This document shows, one piece after another, positions 1 to 11,466 of a stretch of 11,466 nucleotides of DNA; position 1 is the first letter of the stretch, and each line of letters begins with the position of its first letter. The position numbers and the translations under genes are program-made. The DNA is from Candidatus Omnitrophota bacterium (GTDB lineage: Bacteria; Omnitrophota; Gorgyraeia; Zapsychrales; Fredricksoniimonadaceae), in NCBI GenBank assembly GCA_037141995.1, contig JBAXBM010000050.1, positions 1-11,466 of the forward strand. The letters run 5' to 3'. The notes beneath the pieces were generated by a model, which was not told the origin of the DNA, did no database searches, and saw only the letters and a list, made by a program, of their open reading frames with translations.

Positions 1-7
1 GTCTTCA

Positions 8-721
8 ATGTCTATTTTGATGATGATGAATATATTGGGTTTTATTCTTTGTACTATTGGGACTGTGATTTATTTCTTGGTGCGATGGTGGCATCTTAGA
101 AAACAAGGACGAGAATCCTCACGGGAGATTGGCTATTTTAATCTTATTGGCATTGCTTCTTTTATAGCCGGATTGAGTTTGTTTCTTTTCTGGTATTGTC
201 CTGTTTGCCACCTTGCGAGTGTCATTTTTACGTTAAACTTTAAGGGCATTGAGCTAGCATTTCTAAATTCCTGCATGATGTCCGGATTAGTATTCTTGAT
301 TTTTAAATTAAAATCACGATGGCGTTTTTTGCTAGTGATTCCTGTCGTTTTGATTGTTGCGTTATATTTTCTTCAAATGAAAAAGACATATGCTTTTGTC
401 AATATCTTTGAAAGCGCACGTTATGGAGGAATATCATCGGAGAAATTCTTTCAGCTATTGAAAGCTGATGGGCGTGGCTATGAGTGGATCCTTTACAGAA
501 GTCTTGCGAAGAACACGGGCTCTGATGCCAAGATATTGAGATTCTTGTTTGAACAAAAGAATTTTGATATTGATCGCCTTTTGTTTGACAATCCCAGCAC
601 GCCGGAAGATATCATGAACGAATTTTTCAAGGGCCAGTCGCAATACACATTAGCCATGCGATCAAGCCTGGATGACACTACGAAGAAGTATCTTATTTCC
701 CAGATGTTGTTGCGAAGGTGA
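8..721 (+). CDS. Hypothetical integral membrane protein. About 4 predicted TM helices in the N-terminal 125 aa, then a soluble ~110-aa C-terminal domain. May be 5'-truncated by the window edge, because the frame is open back to position 2.
   Basis: 237-aa ORF with strongly hydrophobic N-terminal segments (ILGFILCTIGTVIYFLV, IGIASFIAGLSLFLFWY, MMSGLVFLIF, FLLVIPVVLIVALYFL). Notably low GC (~37%) relative to the rest of the window. No family recognised. Confidence 0.45.
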   Translation: MSILMMMNILGFILCTIGTVIYFLVRWWHLRKQGRESSREIGYFNLIGIASFIAGLSLFLFWYCPVCHLASVIFTLNFKGIELAFLNSCMMSGLVFLIFKLKSRWRFLLVIPVVLIVALYFLQMKKTYAFVNIFESARYGGISSEKFFQLLKADGRGYEWILYRSLAKNTGSDAKILRFLFEQKNFDIDRLLFDNPSTPEDIMNEFFKGQSQYTLAMRSSLDDTTKKYLISQMLLRR

Positions 722-761
722 TGTAAGGTATTTTAAGAATCACATGGTTTATTGGCCGTAG

Positions 762-783
762 GGGCGGGCCCATGTGTCCGCCC
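762..783 (+). terminator. GC-rich hairpin (GGGCGGGC / loop CCATGT / GTCCGCCC) in the ORF1-ORF2 intergenic region, followed by an A6-TTTATTT tract. A weak candidate intrinsic terminator for the upstream gene.
   Basis: Seen in sequence: an 8-bp stem (one G-U pair) with a 6-nt loop. It is not followed by an uninterrupted T-run on either strand, so the terminator assignment is tentative. Confidence 0.25.
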
Positions 784-819
784 GAGAAAAAATTTATTTA
801 ATCCTATGTGAAAGATCAA

Positions 820-878
820 TATAATATTTGACAATACCGTCGTATGTGTTAAATTTGCTAATTAGGATTAGCAAATTT
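820..878 (+). promoter_or_regulatory. Candidate sigma-70 promoter for the AAA+ ATPase gene, with an overlapping palindromic operator. Exact TATAAT at 820..825 and TTGACA at 828..833. The operator at 851..878 is a perfect inverted repeat AAATTTGCTAAT-TAGG-ATTAGCAAATTT.
   Basis: Hexamers and the 12-bp/4-bp/12-bp perfect palindrome were read directly from the sequence. A related mini-palindrome TAAAT-TAGG-ATTTA lies at 914..927, just before the start codon at 934. Confidence 0.45.
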
Positions 879-933
879 GATAATCACAGTGAGCATATTT
901 ATTTATGACGGATTAAATTAGGATTTAGATACG

Positions 934-2130
934 ATGAATGTTACTTATTCGCATAGGGTTACAGAGATTCTTAGGAGCAGGCTTAAGGAGCCACGCAGGA
1001 CCATTCAAATTGTTCTTGGCCCACGGCAAGTGGGGAAATCAACCGCTGTTCGGGGGGTTCTAAAACAGCATGTTGGGCCGGTTGTTTATGCGTTAGCGGA
1101 TCAATCCATGCCACTAGGTTCAGAGTGGATCGCGCGTCATTGGGCTGAAGCGCGGTTGCAGGTTCAGAAAAATGAACGTGTGATCCTTGCGTTGGATGAA
1201 ATTCAGAAAGTCCCTGGTTGGACCAGTGATGTCAAGCGGCTTTGGGATGAAGATACATACAAAGAACGGGATATTCATGTTGTCCTGACGGGGTCTTCAG
1301 CGTTGACTTTGCAGAAAGGGCTTACGGAAAGTCTATTGGGGCGTTTTGAAGTGATCTGGATGCCGCATTGGTCTTTTGTAGAATGCCGGGATGCTTTCGG
1401 TTGGGGGCTTGAAGATTATTTCTTTTTCGGGGGATATCCTGGAGCAGTTGCTTATTGTCAGGATGAAGACCGTTGGCGTAATTATATGATGACGTCGATG
1501 ATCGAGCCGGTATTGACGCGTGATATCGCCCTGTTGACGACGGTACATAATCCCGCGCTATTGCGGAGATTATTGTTCCTGACGTGTGAATATGCTTCCC
1601 AGGAATTATCATACAGGAAAATCCAGGGAATATTTCAGGATGTCAGCAATACTGTGACGATCTCAGCCTATCAGCGAATGCTCGAACAGTCTTTCCTGAT
1701 AGCGGGTCTTCAGAAATGGTCGGGCGGTGCGCTTCAGAAACGAAATTCAAGCCCCAAGTGGCTGCCGTTGAACACCGGGCTTGTTACGGCTATTCAGAAT
1801 AAAAACAGAGCCGAGTTAAAGAATGATCCTGTATTCTTTGGTCGCCTCGTAGAAACGTCCATCGGGGCGCATCTTTTTAATCAGGCGATGCTTTTTAATT
1901 TTGAAGTTTATTATTGGCGTGACGGGAATATGGAGATTGACTTTATTTTCAGGAAAGGGAATAAACTGGTAGCCATTGAGGTGAAAAGTGGTTTGAATAG
2001 CGATACCAAGGCGTTTACAGTTTTTCTTAAGAAATATCCCGAGGCCAAAGTGATGCTTGTCGGAGGGCAAGGAATGCCTCTCGAAGAATTCCTAACAACA
2101 CCGATAAAAAGTTTTTTTGAGTCGATGTAG
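934..2130 (+). CDS. AAA+ superfamily ATPase of the COG1373 / DUF4143 family (predicted ATPase, function unknown).
   Basis: Walker A GPRQVGKST near the N-terminus and Walker B hhhhDE (VILALDEIQ). The C-terminal half has the typical DUF4143 pattern (YRKIQ..., ...TSIGAHLFNQ..., EIDFI...KLVAIEVKSG). Length 398 aa is typical for this family. Confidence 0.85.
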   Translation: MNVTYSHRVTEILRSRLKEPRRTIQIVLGPRQVGKSTAVRGVLKQHVGPVVYALADQSMPLGSEWIARHWAEARLQVQKNERVILALDEIQKVPGWTSDVKRLWDEDTYKERDIHVVLTGSSALTLQKGLTESLLGRFEVIWMPHWSFVECRDAFGWGLEDYFFFGGYPGAVAYCQDEDRWRNYMMTSMIEPVLTRDIALLTTVHNPALLRRLLFLTCEYASQELSYRKIQGIFQDVSNTVTISAYQRMLEQSFLIAGLQKWSGGALQKRNSSPKWLPLNTGLVTAIQNKNRAELKNDPVFFGRLVETSIGAHLFNQAMLFNFEVYYWRDGNMEIDFIFRKGNKLVAIEVKSGLNSDTKAFTVFLKKYPEAKVMLVGGQGMPLEEFLTTPIKSFFESM

Positions 2131-2171
2131 GGATAAAGCGAAGGGGCAGGCATGACCATCAAGGAGAAATC

Positions 2172-2990
2172 ATGAAAATCATTCATAATCTGGTGTACTT
2201 TTTTTTATCAATAGCCCTGGCACAGTTGTTAACGGGAATTTTCATCCCAGCCTGTATCATCCTTTCTATTTATCTTCGAATGAAGAAAGGGATATCTCTT
2301 AAGGAATTCTGGAAGCATGTCCCTAACATTTATGTTTCTATGATTTCGAGTATTTACCCGTTGGTATTTCTGGGATTTCCCGCCTTGCGCCTGATGGCCA
2401 AGAATGCCGGGAAAGGCTCAGGCGGAACGGCCCCTTTTATCATCGATACGGCGAAGCTTCAGCCCGGGGATGTGATCCTGACGGGCAAGGAGCGTACGGG
2501 TGCGATACAGCTGGCGAATATCCTGTCGGCGGGGATCGAGCATTGCCAGTGGACGCATGCGTGCATTTATATCGGTGATGAAAAGGTCATTGAGGCCCAG
2601 GCCAATGGCAAGGGTGTTATTCAGACCAATCTGCGCACATTTTACCTGGACCAGGGGTATCGCCTGAAAGTTTTAAGGCATAAGTTTCTGCCGGTAGACA
2701 AGATGTCCAAAGTGCTTGCCTATTGTGCCCAGGAGAAGGATAAGAATGCTTCTTACGATACCTGGGGCGTTTCCTTTTATGTCCTTGCCGCCATGATCCC
2801 GCCCATGTTCAGCGCCTGGCTTGACGGTGATTTCGCCGAGAAGTTCTTTGATGTCAGGGATGCTTACTTTTGCTCCGAACTTATTGCCGACGCTTTCAAA
2901 GCCGCTGACTGTGCCGTATTCGGCGAAAAAAGCTGGCGTGTTAAGCCTTTGGATTTCGCCTTTAATCCGGTGTTTCATGAGGTGGTGTGA
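2172..2990 (+). CDS. Membrane-anchored YiiX/DUF830-like permuted papain-fold protein of the NlpC/P60 superfamily. Putative amidase/acyltransferase-like enzyme with an N-terminal TM segment.
   Basis: Good RBS (AAGGAG 7 nt upstream). N-terminal hydrophobic helices. Catalytic-region motifs match the YiiX pattern: LQPGDVILT..., ...W THACIYIGD (His), and C-terminal YFCSELIADAFKAA (Cys in a CSEL context). This order (His before Cys) is diagnostic of the permuted papain fold. Confidence 0.55.
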   Translation: MKIIHNLVYFFLSIALAQLLTGIFIPACIILSIYLRMKKGISLKEFWKHVPNIYVSMISSIYPLVFLGFPALRLMAKNAGKGSGGTAPFIIDTAKLQPGDVILTGKERTGAIQLANILSAGIEHCQWTHACIYIGDEKVIEAQANGKGVIQTNLRTFYLDQGYRLKVLRHKFLPVDKMSKVLAYCAQEKDKNASYDTWGVSFYVLAAMIPPMFSAWLDGDFAEKFFDVRDAYFCSELIADAFKAADCAVFGEKSWRVKPLDFAFNPVFHEVV

Positions 2991-3003
2991 GGCGGTGGGG
3001 ATG

Positions 3004-3069
3004 AAATATTTTCATGGTTTTCTGCTTTTTTATGTGGCATACTTGTTTCTGGTGGGTTTTATCCAATAG
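3004..3069 (+). promoter_or_regulatory. Copy A of a ~66-bp conserved intergenic element, also found at 4752..4817. It ends 18 nt before the start codon of the SPFH gene. Contains TGGCATACTTGTTTC (sigma-54-like -24/-12 spacing; -12 element imperfect).
   Basis: About 85% nucleotide identity to copy B over 66 nt. The position relative to the downstream start codon is identical in both copies. Confidence 0.5.
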
Positions 3070-3086
3070 ACCAAAAGGACAGATAT

Positions 3087-4067
3087 ATGCAGAATGAACA
3101 GGGATTGATCTTTAAAGGGATATATGAGTTTGAAGATCCGCTTGGCGTTCTTGTTGCCGCTAAGGTTCCGTCGGTTGGTACCTTGGATCTTTATTCCGGG
3201 ACGGCTGTTTTGGTCAAGGCCAATCAGTGCGCGCTGTTTATTTATAACGGCAAGATCGCCGATATTTTGATGCAGGGCTTGCACGAGGTCAAGACCGAGA
3301 ATTTTCCGCTTTTAACGCGGCTGGCCAACTGGCAGTTTGGGTTTGAAAGTCCTCTCCGGTGTGAGGTATGGTTTTTTTCTGGCGCTGTTTACACCAACAG
3401 GCGCTGGGGAACGTCTCAGCCAGTGATCTGTGATTTTCCGGATCACGGGATAGTGCCGGTGAGGGCGTACGGGATCTTTAATGTGGTCATGCGTGATCCC
3501 AATAAATTTTTTATGACGTTGATCGGGACGCGCAATGCGTACGATATAACTGAACTTGAGGGTCTGGTTCAGGCTCAGATCACGGAAATTCTTCCTGCGG
3601 CCATGCATGTTGTCCCGTCACTTCAGGACTTAAACAAGTCACAGACGCTGGTGGCAAAAGAACTGCAGGGGTTGGTCAATAAAACGATCGAGCAATACGG
3701 CATTGAAATTGTGAGCCTGCAGGTGATCTCGATGATCCCGTCGAAAGAGATCATGGAGGCGCTCGATGCCAAGGCGTCCATGAACATCATCGGCAATAAA
3801 CAGGAATATCTGCTTTATAAGGCGGCCAACAGCTTGATCGGGAGTCATGAGGGTGGTCATGCGAAAGGTTCCAGTGATTCCATGCAGTTGATGATGGGGT
3901 TGATGCTCGGGAAAAGCCTCCTGGATGCCAAGGAAAAAGAGCACACCATGCTGCTGAAAACAGAAGAAGCGCCTCCGATGATTGAAACAAGGTCATGTTC
4001 AAAATGTAAAGCTGTTGTCAAAGCCAGCGACAAGTTTTGTGCGTCCTGCGGAACGGAGCTGAAATGA
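3087..4067 (+). CDS. SPFH (stomatin/prohibitin/flotillin/HflK-C)-domain protein of the COG4260 type with a C-terminal zinc ribbon (YdjI-like).
   Basis: RBS AAGGA 7 nt upstream. The N-terminal region matches the COG4260 signature (GLIFKG..., NQCALFIYNGKIADI, NWQFGFESPL, EVWFFSG..., RWGTSQPV, GIVPVRAYGIFNVVMRDPNKFF, LIGT). C-terminal CSKC-x14-CASC zinc ribbon. Confidence 0.8.
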   Translation: MQNEQGLIFKGIYEFEDPLGVLVAAKVPSVGTLDLYSGTAVLVKANQCALFIYNGKIADILMQGLHEVKTENFPLLTRLANWQFGFESPLRCEVWFFSGAVYTNRRWGTSQPVICDFPDHGIVPVRAYGIFNVVMRDPNKFFMTLIGTRNAYDITELEGLVQAQITEILPAAMHVVPSLQDLNKSQTLVAKELQGLVNKTIEQYGIEIVSLQVISMIPSKEIMEALDAKASMNIIGNKQEYLLYKAANSLIGSHEGGHAKGSSDSMQLMMGLMLGKSLLDAKEKEHTMLLKTEEAPPMIETRSCSKCKAVVKASDKFCASCGTELK

Positions 4068-4738
4068 ACTTTGATATCATATGCCCCAATTGTGGTGCGG
4101 CATCTTCCATTGTGGTGGGTGTTTGCCCGTATTGCAAGACGGTCTTGTCTATTAATTCTGAGAAAGGGGATCATTCTCTGTCGGCGGTGAAAGCAGCCCA
4201 TGAAGCCGGAAAAACGGACAGGTCTCTGTCACTGGTGACGGCACTTGAACAGGAAAAGCCGGAGCTGCTGGATAATATTGAATTTGTTTTGTTGTATACC
4301 AGAATTCTTTTTGAAGTGGATGGGCCTTCCAGCAAGATCAAGTCTTTGCTGACCAAAGCCCTGATCCTGGCGCCCGGTCATCCTGATGTGTTGGAATATC
4401 TGGAAGTGATCGAGGCCGAGTCCATGATGACCCGGGAGCCCAATGATGAAGGTGAACAGCGTCTCATGCGACTCATTCGCCGCTCGCCCAATAATGTTTA
4501 TGCGTTGTTTTTCCTCGGGAGTCATTTGTTTTGGGTTCAAGGAAACGGTGGTGCTGCCCTGAAGTATCTTGAGCCGTGCGTCAGGTTGCGCCCTAATTTT
4601 ATACGGGCCAAGGCCTGTTTGGCGATGATCTACAAGGAATTAAACAAGCCGGATATGGCTAAAAGATTTTTTGATGAGTGTGCCGCCAGCACATCGAGCA
4701 ATAGGACGAAGTCATTTTTCAAAAGGCTTACGGATTGA
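4064..4738 (+). CDS. Zinc-ribbon plus TPR-like helical-repeat protein, translationally coupled to the SPFH gene through an ATGA overlap.
   Basis: Start ATG at 4064 overlaps the upstream TGA stop (4065..4067); the ORF track shows a longer 4037 start that is less likely. N-terminus is CPNC-x13-CPYC. The remainder is alpha-helical repeat-like, with LLYTRILFEV, ALILAPGHPDVLEYLEVI, ALFFLGSHLFWVQG and ACLAMIYKELNKPDMAKRFF resembling TPR units. Confidence 0.65.
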   Translation: MNFDIICPNCGAASSIVVGVCPYCKTVLSINSEKGDHSLSAVKAAHEAGKTDRSLSLVTALEQEKPELLDNIEFVLLYTRILFEVDGPSSKIKSLLTKALILAPGHPDVLEYLEVIEAESMMTREPNDEGEQRLMRLIRRSPNNVYALFFLGSHLFWVQGNGGAALKYLEPCVRLRPNFIRAKACLAMIYKELNKPDMAKRFFDECAASTSSNRTKSFFKRLTD

Positions 4739-4751
4739 TGCTCTAGCGGCC

Positions 4752-4817
4752 AAAATATTTTTTGGTTTTTTGCCTTTCTATATGGCATACTTCTTTCGGG
4801 TGGATTTTATTCAATAG
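4752..4817 (+). promoter_or_regulatory. Copy B of the ~66-bp conserved intergenic element. It ends 18 nt before the start codon of the 703-aa secreted protein and contains TGGCATACTTCTTTC.
   Basis: Alignment to 3004..3069 shows one 1-nt indel plus scattered substitutions. Same spacing to the start codon. A Shine-Dalgarno-like AAGGGGG follows. Confidence 0.5.
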
Positions 4818-4834
4818 TCTTAAGGGGGTTAAAG

Positions 4835-6946
4835 ATGTTGGAAAAACTGTATTCATTTGCCGGATTCCGGAAATTGATTTGTTGGTTGATGGCTGTTGTT
4901 TTTTTGACGGGATCAGTGATGCCCTTATATGCGCAGGGTGTGGCCGGCCTTTCATCTTCCGGGATGATGAACGTAAGCCGGACATTCACGCCGCCGATTG
5001 TCAGGGGGATGACGATTGATCCCAAGGATCCGTTTGCTTTTAAGTTTCTGATGGACCGCGGGGATGACAAGGGGTTGTCCCTGGAGGCTCGGACGGCAGT
5101 TTATGAGAAGTTGATCAAATATTTCATGGCGTCATTGGCGGTGCCGGAAGAAGATGTCTGGGTCAACCTTTCTCCCTATGAAGGGGATCGTTTGATCGCA
5201 GATAATTTTGGCATGACCGTTATGGGGCGCGACCTTCTGGAAATGGATTATGCGTTAAAGCGTGTCACGGCATCGTTATTTCATCCTGATCAGGAGCCGG
5301 GGAAGGCGTTCTGGAAGAAGGTTTATCAGGCGGCCTATGAACGTTATGGGACAACGGATGTGCCGGTCGATACGTTCAACAAGGTCTGGATCGTTCCGAG
5401 TGAGGCAAAGGTTTATGAGGACGGCAATTCTGTTATTCTGGTGAAAAGCCATCTCAAGGTCATGCTGGAGCAGGATTATTTGGCGCAGAAAAAGAATGCC
5501 GCGGTACACCCCGATAACAAGAATGATAAAGATTCCCAGTTTTCCCGCGATATTGTGCGTGAAGTCATGATTCCTATTCTTGAAAAAGAAGTCAATGACG
5601 GCGAAAATTTTGCAGTGTTACGTCAGATCACCGCATCGCTGATCCTTGCCACCTGGTATAAGAAAGCCTGGAAAGATGTTTTGTTGAACCAGGGATATAC
5701 GGATCATTCCAAGGTCAAAGGCGTTGACCAGGATCCTGCTAATAACCAGATTATCTACAACCAATATGTGGAAGCATTCAAGCAGGGCGCTGTGAATCTG
5801 GTCCGTGAAGAATATGATACGTTATCGCAGGAAATGATGCCACGGAAATATTTCTCCGGCGGTTACGGCACAAAGATGACAACAGATGATGGGCAGACAA
5901 CGTCTTTACAGCAACGATTAGAAGAAGTATCTCAGTCGCCGATGTTGGATCCAAAGAAAACGGAGTTGGTGGCGGCGTCTTTGATGCCAACGGCAAGAAC
6001 AACAGTTGCCGGGTTATTCCGACCTGTTTCACGCTTGGCGCTTCTTATTGTGTTGTGGACAGGGGCTTTCTTTCAACCAACGACAGCGGCTTTAGCAGAA
6101 TATAGAAGTACACAAAGTTTTACATATACGAACGGTTCTAGAACTCAAAAAATGGAGTTGATTGTTACTGATCCTGGCGTTGTTGTGACAGATGTGTGGG
6201 ATACTCAATCAAAGATGCTACGTGATTTCACGGATACTGTAAATACAGTAATTATAATGTCTAGGAGTAATGAGTTAGGGGCCTTAGATACACTTGGGAA
6301 GCTTGAAGCAAGAGTCAAAGCAGGGAAGGCCTCAGAAGAGGCGATATTGAAGGGGTTGGTTCAAAAGCAATTTGTTGCTTTATTAATGAATGGGAAAAAG
6401 CCTGTTGATATATCTCCGTTTCTTCAAGCGTATACTGATTGTTTGCAAGAGATAGGGCGGGTACGAAAGACTATAGACAACAATAATAAGATACGGGCTT
6501 ATAATGAAGCTGTGGAGCAGAATAATGCTAAAGCACGAGAATTCAATAAAAATCAAGCGAAGTATTCCTCTGTTGTGAAGGGGTATGTTGAGATTTTTAA
6601 TAAGAAGCAACGTGACCCAGTAGAAATGAAAAAATTATCGGTAAGCATAGGTCAACTTCTTGCGCAACCAGATTTGCCTTCAAATTTCAGGGCAACTCTT
6701 CAGCAAATTAAAACATGGATAGATAAGGCGGAGAATGTAAAGAAACCAAAGCTTGTGACAGATAAGAATCTTGGTGGTATTGATTTGAATGCCAATTCTT
6801 TTAACCTTGAGGTTGAATCGCGTAAGGAAGCCAGGGGCTTGGTGTCTCCTGTTTTGGTTGATCTTGTTGCCCTTGAAGGCTTGAGCCCACGGATATTGTC
6901 CGTCACGTCCGCCAGTGAATATGTAAAGATGTTTTCAGGAAAGTAA
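4835..6946 (+). CDS. Large secreted or exported protein of unknown function (703 aa) with an N-terminal signal peptide. Possibly a fusion or two-domain protein with an internal hydrophobic signal-like segment near residues 384-420.
   Basis: Signal peptide MLEKLYSFAGFRKLICWLMAVVFLTGSVMPLYAQG. No recognisable catalytic motifs. GC falls from ~50% to ~40% after about nt 6040. Confidence 0.6.
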   Translation: MLEKLYSFAGFRKLICWLMAVVFLTGSVMPLYAQGVAGLSSSGMMNVSRTFTPPIVRGMTIDPKDPFAFKFLMDRGDDKGLSLEARTAVYEKLIKYFMASLAVPEEDVWVNLSPYEGDRLIADNFGMTVMGRDLLEMDYALKRVTASLFHPDQEPGKAFWKKVYQAAYERYGTTDVPVDTFNKVWIVPSEAKVYEDGNSVILVKSHLKVMLEQDYLAQKKNAAVHPDNKNDKDSQFSRDIVREVMIPILEKEVNDGENFAVLRQITASLILATWYKKAWKDVLLNQGYTDHSKVKGVDQDPANNQIIYNQYVEAFKQGAVNLVREEYDTLSQEMMPRKYFSGGYGTKMTTDDGQTTSLQQRLEEVSQSPMLDPKKTELVAASLMPTARTTVAGLFRPVSRLALLIVLWTGAFFQPTTAALAEYRSTQSFTYTNGSRTQKMELIVTDPGVVVTDVWDTQSKMLRDFTDTVNTVIIMSRSNELGALDTLGKLEARVKAGKASEEAILKGLVQKQFVALLMNGKKPVDISPFLQAYTDCLQEIGRVRKTIDNNNKIRAYNEAVEQNNAKAREFNKNQAKYSSVVKGYVEIFNKKQRDPVEMKKLSVSIGQLLAQPDLPSNFRATLQQIKTWIDKAENVKKPKLVTDKNLGGIDLNANSFNLEVESRKEARGLVSPVLVDLVALEGLSPRILSVTSASEYVKMFSGK

Positions 6947-7050
6947 TAGTGGCAGGGTATTGAATATTTCATCGACAAAATCACAATCAACCTTATAATG
7001 GCGCTGTTCAGGCGGGATTAATGGCTGGCGGCGCTATGAGAAAATCGTAG

Positions 7051-7183
7051 ATGTTTAGCGCCTTGTGTGCTCGCCGCGCCGAGCGCCGAGTGCTTTTTCG
7101 CCTGGAACGAGGGGGTTTATCCCCCGAGAGAAGCCGAAAGAGTGGCGCGGTATGGCAGGCGAGAAATCGAATGCGCTAAACAT
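7051..7183 (+). ncRNA. Copy 1 of a ~133-nt structured repeat element, immediately upstream of ygiQ and overlapping its start codon. Candidate cis-regulatory RNA or MITE-like structured repeat, with four helices supported by covariation against copy 2.
   Basis: P1 7051..7061 pairs with 7173..7183 (ATGTTTAGCGC / GCGCTAAACAT). P2 7070..7080 pairs with 7144..7148 plus 7158..7163. P3 7093..7100 CTTTTTCG pairs with 7135..7142 CGAAAGAG. P4 is the hairpin GGGGG-TTTAT-CCCCC at 7111..7125. Confidence 0.6.
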
Positions 7184-8960
7184 GCATAAAAAAACTTCGT
7201 TTCTTCCCATGTATCTTGATGAGATGGCGGCTCGGGGGTGGGGTGAGCTGGACGTTATTATCATCAGCGGCGATGCGTATGTGGATCATCCTTCCTACGG
7301 CACGGCATTGATCGGGCGTCTCCTGGAAAGCAAGGGTTATCGCGTGGGTATTATCGCCCAGCCGGACTGGCGGTCGCTGGATGATTTTACGCGCCTGGGG
7401 CGTCCGCGTTTGTGCGTTTGTGTGACGGCGGGCAATGTGGATTCCATGGTTGCCCATTACACGGCCAACAAGCGGCGGCGGCAGGGGGATGATTTTGCGC
7501 CGGGCGGCAAGGACGGCTTGAGGCCGGATCGTGCGGCGATTGTGTATGCTAATCGTGCTAAGGCGGCATTCAAGGGCCTGCCGGTGATCCTGGGCGGTGT
7601 TGAGGCCAGCATGCGGCGCTTGGCGCATTACGATTACTGGGATGATGCGGTGCGGCGTTCGGTATTGATCGATGCCAAGGCGGACATGATCATTTACGGC
7701 ATGGCAGAGCGGCCTGTTGTGGAAGTGATGGCGCGGCTGGCGCAGGGTGAGGCGATCGCAGCGATCCGTGATGTGCGCGGCACCGTGGTGCGTGTGAAGC
7801 CGGCGGAATTTCCTGCGGGGACGATAGAATTGCCGTCGTTTGAAGATATCAGCCGTGACCCTGAAATTTTTAACCAGGCATTTCGCCTGGCTTATGCGGA
7901 AATGTCGCCGGAAGACGGCAAGCCTTTGGCCCAGCGGCATGCGGATCAGTGTGTGCTGCAATTGCCCCCGGCATTGCCATTGACACCTCAAGAACTTGAC
8001 GCCGGTTATGATCTGGCGTATGCGCGCACATGGCATCCGTCGTATGATGCCTTGGGCGGCGTGAAGGGTTTAGAGACAGTGCGCTGGTCGATCACAGCGG
8101 TGCGCGGCTGTCCCGGGGAGTGTCATTTTTGCGGGATCACGTTCCATCAGGGGCGGATCGTGCAGAGCCGGAGCGTGGCGTCCATTGTGCGGGAAGCTGA
8201 AGGCCTCGCGCGCGACCCGGCGTTTCGGGGGACGATTCAGGATGTGGGCGGGCCGACAGCGAATTTATACGGTGCCAGTTGTGCCAATTGGAATAAAGGC
8301 CGGGTATGCCGCGGCAAGCAGTGCCTGATGCCATCGAAATGCCCGTCGCTGGATCTGGGGTGCCGGGAAGCGGTTTCCTTGTATGAAGCGATACGGCGTG
8401 TGCCGGGCATAAAACATATGTTCGTGCAGAGCGGTTTGAGGTATGATCTCTTGCTCGAACCGGCGGCGCTCGATTATTTCAAGGTGTTATGCCGTTATCA
8501 TGTCAGCGGGCAGATGAAGGTGGCTCCCGAGCATACATCCGACGAGGTTTTAGCGCTCATGAACAAGCCGCCCTATGCGCGGTATGAGGCTTTTGTCCGG
8601 CTTTTCAATGAGATCAATGCGGGGCTTGGCAAGAAGCAGTTTCTGGTGAATTATTTTGTCAGCGCGCATCCCGGGGCAGGGCTTAAGGAAGCGTTTGATT
8701 GTGCGTCAATGCTTTTATCCCGCGGGATGCATCCGGAACAGGTGCAAGATTTTCTGCCTTTACCCATGACGGTATCGGCGTGCATGTATCACACGGGGAA
8801 GCATCCTCTGACGGGCAAGAGTGTTTATGTGCCGCGGAAAGACAATGAACGCGCGATGCAGAGGGCCCTTGTGCAGTCGCAGAATCCTGGTAATGCGCCC
8901 TTGATTGACAAGGCGCTTAATATTTTAGGTAAACAGGGAGTTAAGAAAAAATTTAAATAA
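7182..8960 (+). CDS. ygiQ: YgiQ-family radical SAM protein (UPF0313).
   Basis: The N-terminus FLPMYLDEMAARGWGELDVIIISGDAYVDHPSYG matches the conserved YgiQ N-terminal domain. Radical SAM cluster motif CPGECHFC (C-x3-C-x2-C). Start chosen at the MHKK methionine (7182) rather than the 7065 start in the ORF track, which would read through the structured repeat. Confidence 0.85.
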   Translation: MHKKTSFLPMYLDEMAARGWGELDVIIISGDAYVDHPSYGTALIGRLLESKGYRVGIIAQPDWRSLDDFTRLGRPRLCVCVTAGNVDSMVAHYTANKRRRQGDDFAPGGKDGLRPDRAAIVYANRAKAAFKGLPVILGGVEASMRRLAHYDYWDDAVRRSVLIDAKADMIIYGMAERPVVEVMARLAQGEAIAAIRDVRGTVVRVKPAEFPAGTIELPSFEDISRDPEIFNQAFRLAYAEMSPEDGKPLAQRHADQCVLQLPPALPLTPQELDAGYDLAYARTWHPSYDALGGVKGLETVRWSITAVRGCPGECHFCGITFHQGRIVQSRSVASIVREAEGLARDPAFRGTIQDVGGPTANLYGASCANWNKGRVCRGKQCLMPSKCPSLDLGCREAVSLYEAIRRVPGIKHMFVQSGLRYDLLLEPAALDYFKVLCRYHVSGQMKVAPEHTSDEVLALMNKPPYARYEAFVRLFNEINAGLGKKQFLVNYFVSAHPGAGLKEAFDCASMLLSRGMHPEQVQDFLPLPMTVSACMYHTGKHPLTGKSVYVPRKDNERAMQRALVQSQNPGNAPLIDKALNILGKQGVKKKFK

Positions 8961-8962
8961 TG

Positions 8963-9098
8963 GTATTCAGCGCCCTGTGTTTTCGCCGCGCCAAGCGCCG
9001 AGTGCCTTTCCGCCTGGAACGAGGGGGCCGCAGCCCCCGAGAGAAGCCGGAAGGGTGGCGCGATAAGGCAGGCGAAAAGATCTGATGCGCTGAACGTG
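8963..9098 (+). ncRNA. Copy 2 of the ~133-nt structured repeat element. It lies between the ygiQ stop and the ybiT start, ending about 27 nt before the ybiT start codon.
   Basis: About 85% identity to copy 1. Every helix is preserved through compensatory changes: P1 TTCAGCGC/GCGCTGAA vs TTTAGCGC/GCGCTAAA; P2 TTCGCC/GGCGAA vs CTCGCC/GGCGAG; P3 CCTTTCCG/CGGAAGGG vs CTTTTTCG/CGAAAGAG. The P4 stem is kept while its loop differs. Confidence 0.6.
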
Positions 9099-9125
9099 TG
9101 CAATTAAACAAGAGAGGTAATCAGC

Positions 9126-10745
9126 ATGATCACGGTTAATAATGTTACGCTTCAATATGGCCAGCGGAAACTTTTTTCCGGTGTTAATATCAGTTTCTCC
9201 CAGGGTAATTGCTACGGCCTTATCGGCGCCAATGGATCCGGCAAATCAACGTTCCTGAAGATCTTGTCCGGCGAGATTGACTCAACCGAAGGTACAGTGG
9301 CCATTGATCCCGGCAAGCGCATGTCGGTGTTGCGCCAGGATCATTTTGCGTTTGATGAGCAGACGGTTTTGACAACGGTCATCATGGGGCACAAGCGGCT
9401 TTTTGATGTCATGCTGGAAAAAGACGCCATTTATGCCAAGGCAGATTTTACTGATGCCGACGGCATGCGTGTTTCCGAGCTGGAAGCCGAGTTTGCGGAA
9501 ATGGACGGGTGGAACGCGGAATCTGATGCCGGCAAACTCTTGGCGGAACTGGGGATCGCGACCTCAGCGCACACCCAGCAGATGAAACAGCTCGAGGGCG
9601 GCGACAAGGTGCGTGTGCTGTTGGCCCAGGCGCTTTTTGGCAATCCCGATATCCTTCTTCTCGACGAGCCGACGAACCATCTTGATGTCGAGACCTGCAT
9701 GTGGCTGGAGGAATTTCTTTCCCGTTTCGAGAATACGGCGATCGTTGTTTCCCATGACCGCCATTTTCTCGACAATGTGTGCACGCATATCGCCGACATT
9801 GATTTCGGGAAGGTTAAGATTTACTCCGGCAATTATACGTTCTGGTCGGAATCAAGCCGCCTCGCCGCAAAGCAGCGTAGTGAAGAGAATAAGAAGGTCG
9901 AGGACCGCCGCAAGGAATTGCAGGATTTCATCGCACGCTTCAGTTCCAATTTGTCAAAGTCGCGTCAGGCAACAAGCCGTAAAAAGATCCTCGAGAAACT
10001 TGTCATCGAGGACATTGAACCGTCTTCGCGTAAATATCCGTATGTGCATTTTGAGCAGGAACGCGAGGCCGGCAACGACCTCTTGGGGGTGGATGATCTG
10101 GCCAAATCTTTGGACGGGCAGGTCATGTTCAAGAAGTTATCATTTACGATTGAAAAGGGAGACAAGGTGGCTTTTGTGGGATCCAATGATCTGATCAAGA
10201 CGACACTTTTTCAGATTCTCATGGGCGAACTTCCGGCGGATAAAGGGACGTTCAAGTGGGGCTTCTCGACAAAGCGCGCCTATTTCCCGAAAGACAATGC
10301 CGAATATTTCAAGTCTGATCTCAGTGTCGTTGACTGGCTGAGGCAGTATTCCGAAGAGAAGGCCGAAGTTTTTATCCGCGGCTTTTTAGGCAAGATGCTT
10401 TTTACCGGTGAAGAATCCCAGAAACCGGCCAAGGTCCTTTCAGGCGGCGAGAAAGTCCGCTGTATGCTTTCACGCATGATGCTCATGAAGCCCAACGTTG
10501 TGATTCTCGACGAGCCGACCAGTCACCTGGATCTCGAGTCGATCACCGCACTCAATGAGGGGCTGAAGCGCTTTAAGGGCACGATCCTTTTCTCGTCGCA
10601 TGACCATGAGCTGGTGCAGACCGTCGCCAACCGCATCATCGAGATCACGCCGGCGGGCATGATCGACCGTACGGGTACAACGTTTGATGATTATCTGTCC
10701 GATGAACGCGTCAAAACCCTGCGGGCAGAGTTTGCCAGGGTTTAA
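9126..10745 (+). CDS. ybiT: ABC-F family ATPase (tandem ABC domains, no transmembrane domain), YbiT/EttA-like.
   Basis: Near collinear similarity to E. coli YbiT as I recall it: NVT.QYG...GLIGANGSGKSTF.KIL, RQDHFAF.E.TVL.TVIMGH, RVLLAQALF..PDILLLDEPTN.LD, SHDRHFL..VCTH.AD.D. Second half has KPAKVLSGGEK, ILDEPTSHLD and SHD. RBS AGAGAGG upstream. Confidence 0.9.
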   Translation: MITVNNVTLQYGQRKLFSGVNISFSQGNCYGLIGANGSGKSTFLKILSGEIDSTEGTVAIDPGKRMSVLRQDHFAFDEQTVLTTVIMGHKRLFDVMLEKDAIYAKADFTDADGMRVSELEAEFAEMDGWNAESDAGKLLAELGIATSAHTQQMKQLEGGDKVRVLLAQALFGNPDILLLDEPTNHLDVETCMWLEEFLSRFENTAIVVSHDRHFLDNVCTHIADIDFGKVKIYSGNYTFWSESSRLAAKQRSEENKKVEDRRKELQDFIARFSSNLSKSRQATSRKKILEKLVIEDIEPSSRKYPYVHFEQEREAGNDLLGVDDLAKSLDGQVMFKKLSFTIEKGDKVAFVGSNDLIKTTLFQILMGELPADKGTFKWGFSTKRAYFPKDNAEYFKSDLSVVDWLRQYSEEKAEVFIRGFLGKMLFTGEESQKPAKVLSGGEKVRCMLSRMMLMKPNVVILDEPTSHLDLESITALNEGLKRFKGTILFSSHDHELVQTVANRIIEITPAGMIDRTGTTFDDYLSDERVKTLRAEFARV

Positions 10746-10749
10746 CTAT

Positions 10750-11466
10750 CTATTTTAGTATTGTTATCAGTTCCTGCGGGGAAACGATGCGGACGAAATC
10801 GACGGCGCGGGGATGCTCGACCGGGCAGACACAATAACAGGGGACGTCAGGATATTCCGTGTGAAAGGCTTTAAGGCCTGTCAGGTCGCGCAGGCCAATA
10901 TGCGGGGTGGATTTGCATTCAATGGCATAGAGGATGGACGCTCCGCGGCTGATCAGCAGGTCAACTTCAGCTCCATTGTTTGTGCGCCAGAAGTTGAATT
11001 TCCAGTCGAGCTGGTGGTATTCATTGAGGTGTGTCAATTCCTGGATAACCCATTGTTCAAACAGTCGGCCTTGTTGGATCGGGTTGTTGTTGTCTCTAAG
11101 GGTTCCCAGGATCGAGCGGGTGACGCCATTATCAAAGAAGTAGAATTTCGGGCTATGGCTCATCCTTTGACGCAGGCTTTTCAAATAAGGGAAAATAAAA
11201 AAGCCGATGAGGGTATCTTCAAGGATGGCGTAATATTCCCGGACCGTTGATAATGAAACCTGGCATTCCCGGGAGACGGAAGAAAAATTGATCTGTTGGG
11301 CAAATTGAGCCGCCGCAATATCAAGAAAATTCTGAAACCCGTTAAGGTTTCGCACCAAAGCTTCGGCTTTGATTTCTTCGCTGAGGTAGGCAACGGTGTA
11401 GGCGCGCAGGAGATCTTGTGCCTGGTCCATTTTATTTTCCAGTAGCAGGCTGTAAATTCTTGGCAT
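10750..11466 (-). CDS. C-terminal DUF4143 portion of a second COG1373-type AAA+ ATPase. It is 5'-truncated at the window edge; the N-terminal ATPase domain lies beyond position 11466.
   Basis: DUF4143-like motifs: NFSSVSRECQVSLSTVREYYAILEDTLIGFFIFPY, KFYFFDNGV, LFEQWVIQEL, EVDLLI...AIECKS. These parallel the C-terminal half of the 934..2130 protein. The frame is open to the window end. Confidence 0.75.
   Translation of the reverse strand: MPRIYSLLLENKMDQAQDLLRAYTVAYLSEEIKAEALVRNLNGFQNFLDIAAAQFAQQINFSSVSRECQVSLSTVREYYAILEDTLIGFFIFPYLKSLRQRMSHSPKFYFFDNGVTRSILGTLRDNNNPIQQGRLFEQWVIQELTHLNEYHQLDWKFNFWRTNNGAEVDLLISRGASILYAIECKSTPHIGLRDLTGLKAFHTEYPDVPCYCVCPVEHPRAVDFVRIVSPQELITILK

Follow-up and report, generated by a model that had tools for sequence, protein, structure and literature searches.

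A conserved two-gene module pairing a PF13421-type SPFH protein with a zinc ribbon-TPR protein

Introduction

The Bacillus subtilis SPFH protein SamI/YdjI is soluble and carries a zinc finger at its C-terminus (PMC8581546, PMC11237479). Its membrane localisation needs the membrane proteins YdjG and YdjH, and PspA foci in turn depend on YdjI (PMC8581546). YdjG combines a pair of N-terminal zinc ribbons with an NTF2-like domain and a transmembrane (TM) segment, and YdjH has a TPM domain (PMC11237479); the N-terminus of YdjG reads MIISYKCPNC in a cloning-primer sequence (PMC8581546). SamI holds SamGH signalling in check, and its assembly into a higher-order oligomer is predicted (bioRxiv 10.64898/2026.02.06.704340). 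Here we describe a gene pair of related type in an 11,466-nucleotide (nt) stretch of DNA from a Candidatus Omnitrophota bacterium (GenBank assembly GCA_037141995.1, contig JBAXBM010000050.1, positions 1 to 11,466, forward strand), referred to as the window. Gene 1 encodes an SPFH protein that ends in a zinc ribbon (ZnR), and gene 2 (NCBI locus tag WCI27_03985) encodes a protein that begins with a zinc ribbon and continues into TPR-like repeats. This two-gene module is real, strongly conserved and so far undescribed, and it belongs to the SamI/YdjI-type PF13421 SPFH systems; no description of an SPFH-ZnR/ZnR-TPR pair was found in the literature searched.

PF13421-type band-7 proteins occur also in polyamine-linked operons with DUF350 and DUF4178 (PMC11237479). 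An initial annotation of the window, made from the sequence alone, assigned gene 1 to COG4260 and called the proteins of that group largely uncharacterised; this statement is outdated, as SamI/YdjI has been studied experimentally (PMC8581546; bioRxiv 10.64898/2026.02.06.704340).

Conservation and distribution of the gene pair

A pattern scan with the SPFH alignment over GTDB r232, one genome per species, identified 54 loci. Their hosts are Omnitrophota, many Bdellovibrionota/Bacteriovoracia/Oligoflexia, several "Deltaproteobacteria"/Thermodesulfobacteriota metagenome-assembled genomes (MAGs) and a single "Planctomycetales" bin; the pair is present in the cultured Bdellovibrio sp. HCB337 (NZ_CP178621.1, ~2,663,055-2,664,676). 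The 3' part of the SPFH gene is contained in 47 of these loci, and each of the 47 has a gene 2 homologue immediately downstream on the same strand. The reverse search, of JGI metagenomes with the TPR family, yielded 39 loci not truncated at the 5' end; in each of them the SPFH gene lies directly upstream of the ZnR-TPR gene (39/39). The ribbons and the tight junction recur across these 86 loci despite divergence of the proteins to ~40-55% identity. Clustering of the neighbouring open reading frames (ORFs) found no third gene family near the pair in more than six of ~50 loci, and the flanks vary even within Omnitrophota. Pairwise distances among the gene 1 proteins correlate with those among the gene 2 proteins (Pearson r = 0.86), and identity tracks taxonomy, being 58-73% in Omnitrophota and 42-53% in Bdellovibrionota. 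Genomes with two matches hold either complementary contig-end fragments (loci L043/L050, L047/L049, and L018/L052) or a short terminal fragment (L028/L051), a pattern that fits a single gene copy per genome.

The constant adjacency, the nearly constant junction, the lack of a third conserved family and the correlated divergence of the two proteins show genes 1 and 2 to be an operon of two genes that is complete in itself and inherited as a unit. With adjacency in all 86 loci examined, it is very probable that the pair is obligate; the proposal of the initial annotation that the two proteins are obligate partners, and its expectation that a ZnR-TPR gene would accompany SPFH genes of this subfamily, are well supported by comparative genomics (86/86 informative loci).

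A few loci have an incomplete arrangement. L054 retains only SPFH profile positions 3-29, followed directly by TPR profile positions 47-224, and in L048 and L105 the TPR gene next to SPFH is truncated at its 5' end; all three look like decayed copies of the module and may be pseudogenes or assembly artefacts.

The gene junction

The start codon of gene 2 (4064-4066) and the stop codon of gene 1 (TGA, 4065-4067) share letters in an ATGA overlap of 4 nt (Table 1). Among the 47 genome loci the junction is -4 nt in 35, -1 in 6, 0 in 4, +7 in 1, and +28 in 1; among the 39 metagenome loci it is -4 nt in 34, -1 in 3, and 0 in 2, so that 84/86 junctions are -4, -1 or 0 nt. Residue 2 of the gene 2 protein is S or N in ATGA loci, because the overlap makes that codon start with A, and G or A in loci with a -1 junction. 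A Shine-Dalgarno-like GGAG, GAGG or AGGA is located at -18 to -5 in 30/40 pairs, and in many loci the motif arises from the TGYGGAGG that encodes Cys-Gly-Gly/Glu in the gene 1 ribbon.

In all homologues of gene 2 the alignment begins at residue 1 with M-[SN]-F, which places the real start of the gene at ATG 4064; a longer ORF with a TTG start at 4037 was rejected as gene 2, as every homologue begins at the ATG. A programmed -1 frameshift that would join both genes was likewise rejected: no conserved slippery sequence precedes the stop, and in the final gene 1 codon before the stop only the last base (A) is fixed.

The SPFH protein

Pfam Band_7_1 (PF13421) matches residues 37-233 of gene 1 (E 7.5e-45, 153.6 bits where the cut-off is 24, covering positions 13-210 of the 211 in the profile), Band_7 matches with E 3.3e-11 (44 bits, cut-off 23.6), and Zn_ribbon_3 matches the C-terminus (residues 300-325, E 1.5e-7); no NCBIfam family matches. 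An AlphaFold2 (AF2) monomer model, built with 67 homologues, has a mean predicted local distance difference test score (pLDDT) of 79.9. Searched with Foldseek against the PDB, the model finds the SPFH alpha/beta fold with probability 1.00 and E 1e-9 to 1e-6 in stomatin, prohibitin, HflK/C, flotillin, erlin, and QmcA, SPFH proteins that each assemble into cages or rings; QmcA is the sole solved structure that is detected by sequence (E 1.5e-4).

The four most conserved regions of gene 1 are the N-terminal beta domain, the hydrophobic helix at residues 72-90, a short helix that follows the SPFH core in the AF2 model (residues 238-251, conservation 0.77), and an island at residues 263-280. The beta domain carries the subfamily motif F-K-G-I-Y-E-F-E-D-P, and its invariant residues in the SPFH alignment are D17, G20, P28, G31, L35, Q47, G55, and G64. 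Helix 72-90 is a candidate membrane- or partner-contacting element; a related motif, LPxLTxLxNW, is present in the PF13421 proteins of Ralstonia and Gemmatirosa. In the Met/Gly-rich island D264, Q267, M269, G271, M273, L274, and G275 are invariant in the same alignment, whereas the linkers on either side are non-conserved (0.27 each). AF2 predicts disorder for residues 252-264 and 284-297, and the helix it draws around the island (residues 265-291) has a pLDDT of ~50. Outgroup PF13421 proteins have related Gly-rich hydrophobic stretches at this position. The island probably corresponds to the "low-complexity region" of YdjI, and it could serve as a membrane-dipping element, a cap element or a ligand for TPRs.

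The highest 19-residue Kyte-Doolittle hydropathy in gene 1 is 1.17, and the protein therefore has no TM helix; no TM-like segment is present in either protein across 40 pairs, in which the highest such value is 1.59. Amphipathic membrane helices at residues 74-84 and 264-282 were considered and are not asserted here, the hydrophobic moments being low.

The zinc ribbon-TPR protein

Gene 2 belongs with the TPR proteins by its profile matches (TPR_19, 29.2 bits, cut-off 25; TPR_14, 24.0 bits, cut-off 23.5) and by its helix-turn-helix solenoid fold. The AF2 monomer model has a mean pLDDT of 87.7, with 12 confident helices that make up approximately six TPR-like hairpins and a poorly defined ribbon (~62). 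The ribbon, at residues 5-27, falls below the cut-offs of Zn_ribbon_3 and Zn_ribbon_LapB. NCBIfam returns sub-threshold TPR families only, and the solved structures detected by sequence are generic TPRs. At 50% identity and E <= 1e-30 the ZnR-TPR family comprises ~33 representatives.

A separate small family of relatives (216-225 amino acids (aa); loci L058, L059, and L061) matches the TPR part alone (E 1e-23 to 1e-15), lacks the N-terminal Cys ribbon and has a conserved HHLFWK motif. None of its three informative contigs has an SPFH neighbour (3/3); a divergently transcribed rmuC lies upstream of the TPR gene in L058 and L059, and the divergent upstream gene of L061 has no family match. Presence of the ribbon thus tracks linkage to SPFH.

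The two zinc ribbons

Profile searches and the homologue alignment confirm the SPFH, zinc ribbon, and TPR assignments of the initial annotation, as well as its ATGA junction between ORFs 3087-4067 and 4064-4738. The spacings it gave, CxxC-x14-CxxC for the ribbon that ends gene 1 (ribbon 1) and CxxC-x13-CxxC for the one that opens gene 2 (ribbon 2), need correction, as the sequence reads x10 in both. This spacing is found in 47/47 loci for ribbon 2 and 43/47 for ribbon 1. Ribbon 1 reads C304-SK-C307 ... C318-AS-C321 and is confident in the AF2 model (residues 300-326). Gene 2 begins MNFDIICPNCGA...CPYCK; the ribbon 2 motif M-x-F-x3-C-x2-C-G-A...G-x-C-P-[YF]-C-K is invariant, with M1, F3, C7, C10, G11, A12, G19, C21, P22, C24, and K25 the invariant residues.

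One hidden Markov model (HMM) per ribbon was run against the 7112 ORFs from all loci in the study. The ribbon 1 HMM matches the C-terminal ribbons of distant PF13421 proteins (Gemmatirosa, E 1.4e-8; Nocardia, E 0.007); the best matches of the ribbon 2 HMM outside its own family are N-terminal ribbons of DUF4178 proteins (Ralstonia, E 0.002; Gemmatirosa, E 0.012), whose genes adjoin PF13421 genes in both organisms. Cross-matches between the two HMMs have E > 0.9. By these comparisons the ribbons are of different classes, each with a counterpart in distant PF13421 systems, and there is a weak but coherent indication that an SPFH protein with a ribbon-led partner may be an old theme of the PF13421 branch in which the body of the partner has been swapped.

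In two related Bdellovibrionales MAGs (loci L040 and L044) ribbon 1 lacks its first CxxC knuckle (...PRERSLSHPRFCPSCGEPLP); its second knuckle is kept, as are the ATGA overlap and an intact partner gene. Both zinc binding and the ribosome-binding site embedded there may act to conserve this second knuckle.

A group of metagenome ORFs (L107-L112; for example, 3221-5089 of L108) spans ~620-630 codons from stop to stop and has two tandem ribbons resembling ribbon 2; these ORFs have no TPR and no SPFH neighbour, and they belong to an unrelated ribbon-bearing family.

Comparison with known systems

SamI/YdjI, whose architecture is taken here from published descriptions, shares with gene 1 the PF13421-type SPFH domain, the absence of a membrane anchor, a low-complexity linker and a zinc finger or ribbon at the C-terminus. 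YdjG, also known here by description, resembles gene 2 as an operon partner that begins with a CPxC ribbon, and in the Bacillus system the partner is needed for SPFH function and localisation (PMC8581546, PMC11237479, bioRxiv 10.64898/2026.02.06.704340). The parallel with pspA-ydjGHI drawn in the initial annotation is therefore apt, except that it placed the ribbon protein next to YdjI; ydjH separates ydjG from ydjI. The differences are several. No pspA, no homologue of the TPM-domain protein YdjH, and no TM protein is found inside the module or conserved nearby: none of the nine window proteins has a Pfam match to PspA_IM30, as the initial annotation had also noted, or to TPM, and no third family recurs in ~50 loci. 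YdjG combines two ribbons with an NTF2-like domain and a TM segment, whereas gene 2 combines one ribbon with TPR repeats; the SPFH gene comes first here, reversing the order of ydjGHI, and the genes overlap directly. The ydjGHI operon is found in Firmicutes, and the present pair in Omnitrophota and Bdellovibrionota.

The DUF350-PF13421 SPFH-DUF4178-speD operons of a Ralstonia megaplasmid and of Gemmatirosa also contain a PF13421 SPFH protein, 27-35% identical to gene 1, followed by a protein with an N-terminal CPxCGA...CxYC/CxFCK ribbon. The body of that partner is a beta-rich DUF4178 domain with a C-terminal TM segment in place of TPRs, the ribbon spacing is x15-16 rather than x10, and the operons are larger, with membrane and polyamine genes. 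The Gemmatirosa SPFH protein has a C-terminal ribbon like that of gene 1, whereas the Ralstonia one ends in a SHOCT-like segment (recognised by eye) and has no ribbon.

HflK/C-FtsH, QmcA-YbbJ/NfeD, flotillin, stomatin, and prohibitin share the SPFH fold of gene 1 and the same logic, an SPFH oligomer (predicted for gene 1) with a dedicated partner encoded alongside. Those membrane-anchored cages are held by TM segments or hairpins and walled by long coiled coils, features that gene 1 lacks; their partners are proteases or NfeD membrane proteins, in contrast to the ZnR-TPR protein.

LapB/YciM is an adaptor for FtsH that consists of an N-terminal TM helix, TPRs, and a C-terminal rubredoxin-type zinc domain, and in E. 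coli its function is tied to a protease under SPFH control. Gene 2 likewise combines TPR repeats with a four-Cys zinc module, but this module is N-terminal and there is no TM helix. Its scores lie far below the LapB cut-offs (Zn_ribbon_LapB, 17.8 against 25.7 bits; NCBIfam LapB, 18.3 against 474 bits), and Pfam and NCBIfam give no evidence of homology to LapB beyond generic TPRs. The Pfam family DZR (PF12773) is a further point of comparison: ribbons 1 and 2 show its spacing when they are joined in silico across the junction, but here they are on two polypeptides and dissimilar to each other, and the termini taken singly reach 27.0 and 20.2 bits, short of the 27.3-bit cut-off.

Surrounding genes and repeats in the window

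Table 1. Features of the gene pair and its surroundings in the window
Feature	Position	Strand	Basis or remark
AAA_14/DUF4143 ATPase	934-2130	+	PADLOC candidate defence family PDC-S01, E 4e-151
Permuted papain-like amidase, Peptidase_C92/YaeF-like; hydrophobic N-terminal segments (by eye)	2172-2990	+	E 4e-9
69-nt direct repeat, copy 1; probable promoter/leader element	3010-3078	+	Ends 9 nt before gene 1 ATG (3087)
Gene 1, SPFH protein, 326 aa, predicted soluble, C-terminal zinc ribbon	3087-4067	+	PF13421, AF2, Foldseek, hydropathy
N-terminal beta-strand domain, residues 10-68	3114-3290	+	AF2 strands 12-67; conservation 0.72
Conserved hydrophobic helix P-L-L-T-R-L-A-N-W-x-F-G-F, residues 72-90	3300-3356	+	AF2 helix 74-83, pLDDT ~57; conservation 0.80
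SPFH alpha/beta core, residues 90-236	3354-3794	+	Pfam; AF2 pLDDT 89-97; Foldseek
Met/Gly-rich hydrophobic motif D-S-M-Q-L-M-M-G-L-M-L-G-K-S-L-L, residues 263-280	3873-3926	+	Conservation 0.75
Zinc ribbon 1, gene 1 C-terminus, C304-x2-C307-x10-C318-x2-C321	3996-4049	+	Zn_ribbon_3; AF2 pLDDT 87-89
Shine-Dalgarno-like GGAG for gene 2, within last gene 1 codons	4055-4058	+	5 nt before ATG
ATGA start/stop overlap, termination-reinitiation type of translational coupling	4064-4067	+	Sequence
Gene 2, ZnR-TPR protein, 224 aa, N-terminal zinc ribbon and TPR-like helical repeat	4064-4738	+	Pfam, homologues, AF2
Zinc ribbon 2, gene 2 N-terminus, C7-P-N-C10-G-A-x8-C21-P-Y-C24-K	4082-4135	+	Alignment, ribbon HMM
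TPR-like solenoid, 12 helices, residues 39-223	4178-4732	+	
69-nt direct repeat, copy 2; probable promoter/leader element	4758-4826	+	Directly 3' of gene 2; ends 9 nt before ATG 4835
703-aa protein, hydrophobic signal-peptide-like N-terminus (by eye)	4835-6946	+	
Repeated intergenic element, ~130 nt, two copies ~89% identical	~7054-7182, ~8966-9096	+	Long imperfect hairpin
Radical SAM ORF, 631 aa, listed GTG start 7065	7065-8960	+	Pfam Radical_SAM_N from residue 46
Second AAA_14/DUF4143 ATPase, cut by contig end	10750-11466	-	

The gene pair is bracketed by two copies of a 69-nt direct repeat that are 80% identical (Table 1). Both carry an extended -10-like TGGCATACT, located at 3034-3042 in copy 1, and in other Omnitrophota TGTTATACT or TGGTATACT is found ~35-45 nt upstream of the orthologous gene 1 ATG. 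The repeat is probably a duplicated promoter/leader, and copy 2 marks the 3' boundary of the module. If so, the SPFH operon would be co-regulated with the gene downstream, and in this genome alone. A consensus promoter scan of 2900-4900 gave nothing above the shuffle expectation and did not call the 69-nt repeat; no terminator was found after gene 2 in a scan of the same region. A sigma-54 reading of the repeat (TGGCAT-N5-TTTC) was rejected, as the -12 GC is missing and the orthologous upstream regions show a TGnTATACT extended -10.

The 703-aa protein downstream of copy 2 has no Pfam, NCBIfam or PADLOC match and is not conserved beside the pair in any other locus. ORF clustering grouped the amidase upstream with no other locus, and a homologue of the AAA_14/DUF4143 ATPase occurs near the pair in L001 only.

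The ~130-nt elements precede a YgiQ-like radical SAM gene and an ABC-F gene. Their hairpin has 39 consensus pairs, four of them with compensatory changes between the copies, and a single-copy z-score of -2.1; Rfam gave no match at E <= 1 over the whole window. The element is either a repetitive extragenic palindrome/miniature inverted-repeat transposable element (REP/MITE)-like element or an unknown structured RNA. Because GTG 7065 falls inside the hairpin element and Radical_SAM_N starts at residue 46, the true start of the radical SAM gene is probably an internal Met (MHKK...) at ~7182.

Proposed function and rival explanations

The reading we favour, with a probability of about 0.55, is that genes 1 and 2 encode a co-produced complex in which a SamI-like SPFH oligomer carries a ribbon-docked TPR adaptor for clients, without linkage to a TM partner or PspA. 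On this view the two genes would make up a stand-alone operon, coupled in translation, whose products are the two subunits of a scaffold. As a SamI/YdjI-type SPFH protein, gene 1 would assemble into a large ring or cage, like other SPFH proteins, probably at the inner face of the cytoplasmic membrane, and termination-reinitiation at the ATGA would produce gene 2 in fixed proportion to gene 1. The gene 2 protein would use its invariant N-terminal ribbon to attach to the SPFH oligomer; every subunit would then display a peptide-binding TPR module and recruit one or more client proteins. The partner ribbon would thus be a conserved docking element, and the C-terminal domain the exchangeable part: NTF2-like with a TM segment in Bacillus YdjG, DUF4178 with a TM segment in proteobacterial operons, and TPR here. 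The domain identities and folds, the lack of TM segments and of fusions, the coupling geometry, the strict co-occurrence and co-divergence, and the tie between ribbon presence and SPFH adjacency are observed; the physical interaction, contact surfaces, oligomeric state, membrane association, clients, and stress-related role of the complex are inferred.

Several observations weigh against this reading. B. subtilis two-hybrid experiments report interactions of YdjI with YdjH and PspA and none with YdjG (PMC8581546), which leaves the ribbon-docking step without direct precedent, and the similarity of ribbon 2 to the DUF4178 ribbons is weak (14-16 bits) and comes from a small, biased ORF set. The Spearman coefficient for the divergence of the two proteins is only 0.46. 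Neither protein has a membrane anchor, and the hydrophobic motifs at residues 74-84 and 264-282 (hydrophobic moments 0.34 and 0.05) are not classically amphipathic; membrane association is thus a guess, and the complex could be cytosolic. The TPR fold matches are generic and point to no client.

A broader form of the docking proposal, which we hold tentatively as a possibility, is that the CPxCGA...CP[YF]CK ribbon is a general docking tag for PF13421 SPFH proteins, carried on swappable effector domains; the pair would then be the minimal form, lacking both a TM partner and PspA, a decorated membrane-peripheral or cytosolic SPFH cage that recruits clients by many TPR modules. Closer contact between the ribbons themselves, with ribbons 1 and 2 binding each other to form the whole interface, is rather doubtful, because ribbon 1 is dispensable in some lineages: L040 and L044 lack its first CxxC with the partner intact, and the ribbon-less PF13421 protein of Ralstonia, which has a SHOCT-like helix pair (by eye), is still followed by a protein led by CPxCGA...CxFCK. 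Conservation of the second knuckle, which might otherwise speak for such contact, is confounded by the embedded Shine-Dalgarno sequence. A ribbon heterodimer would nevertheless account for the juxtaposition of the ribbons at the junction in all loci, for the low pLDDT of ribbon 2 (as expected of a segment ordered on binding), and for the way ribbon presence follows SPFH linkage in the TPR family. The opposite proposal, that the TPR protein acts elsewhere and is merely co-transcribed and co-regulated with SPFH, draws on the promiscuity of TPR proteins, on their generic fold matches, and on the fact that interaction of gene 1 with gene 2 is itself only proposed. It is unlikely in view of the 86/86 adjacency and a near-invariant overlap across phyla in which all other neighbours change, the co-divergence of both proteins (r = 0.86), and the absence of SPFH linkage in the ribbon-less TPR relatives.

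The initial annotation also raised the possibility that a single ancestral polypeptide, SPFH-double-zinc-ribbon-TPR, was split between the ribbons, the halves then reassembling through them. Joined in silico, the two termini match Pfam DZR over positions 1-44 of 45 (E 5e-11, 43 bits) although each ribbon alone is below the cut-off, both ribbons are x10, and the cross-junction spacer is constant at 11-13 residues; the DZR match is given little weight because any two adjacent ribbons would be expected to produce it. The search for fused versions in other genomes found none: all 84 gene 2 homologue clusters (84/84) are 164-233 aa without fusion, the 33/33 HMMER matches at E <= 1e-30 of the TPR-family profile among 1.84 billion representatives are <=268 aa and match from residue 1, and gene 1 homologues are 292-390 aa among the matches listed. 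The ribbons are moreover of different classes by their cross-matches, and a lone C-terminal ribbon, with no TPR, is already present in distant PF13421 proteins, so that SPFH-ZnR is the older state; fission is accordingly a very unlikely origin of the pair. A mobile defence or conflict module, that is, an SPFH-based anti-phage or toxin-like system moving between genomes, is the least credible of the proposals. Its neighbourhoods are variable, a 69-nt direct repeat flanks the pair in the window, and the pair sits 957 nt downstream of the PDC-S01-type ATPase, but the repeat is better read as a duplicated promoter/leader. PADLOC-DB matches neither protein, the 2.9 million viral contigs of IMG/VR contain no homologue, and phage records lack gene 2 and give one match to gene 1, at 21% identity. 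Plasmids hold no close relative, their best matches being distant PF13421 members (23-36% identical) from other operon types, which served as outgroups here; the one-copy fragment pattern and the agreement of identity with taxonomy also stand against mobility.

Implications

The module is concentrated in lineages with predatory or epibiotic lifestyles, which could hint that it takes part in remodelling membranes during predatory or epibiotic life. The ZnR-TPR partner is an unnamed protein family for which public databases give a generic TPR annotation only. With two predicted soluble proteins of ~330 and ~225 residues and a fixed junction, the system is reduced to a form convenient for reconstitution, for cryo-electron microscopy and for asking if zinc ribbons couple the components in this SPFH branch. 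SPFH proteins are universal membrane organisers, and the module bears on how the anchor-less PF13421 branch is itself recruited and on the role of its terminal ribbon; if ribbon docking is true, three operon types (ydjGHI, DUF4178/polyamine, and ZnR-TPR) would be linked under one principle.

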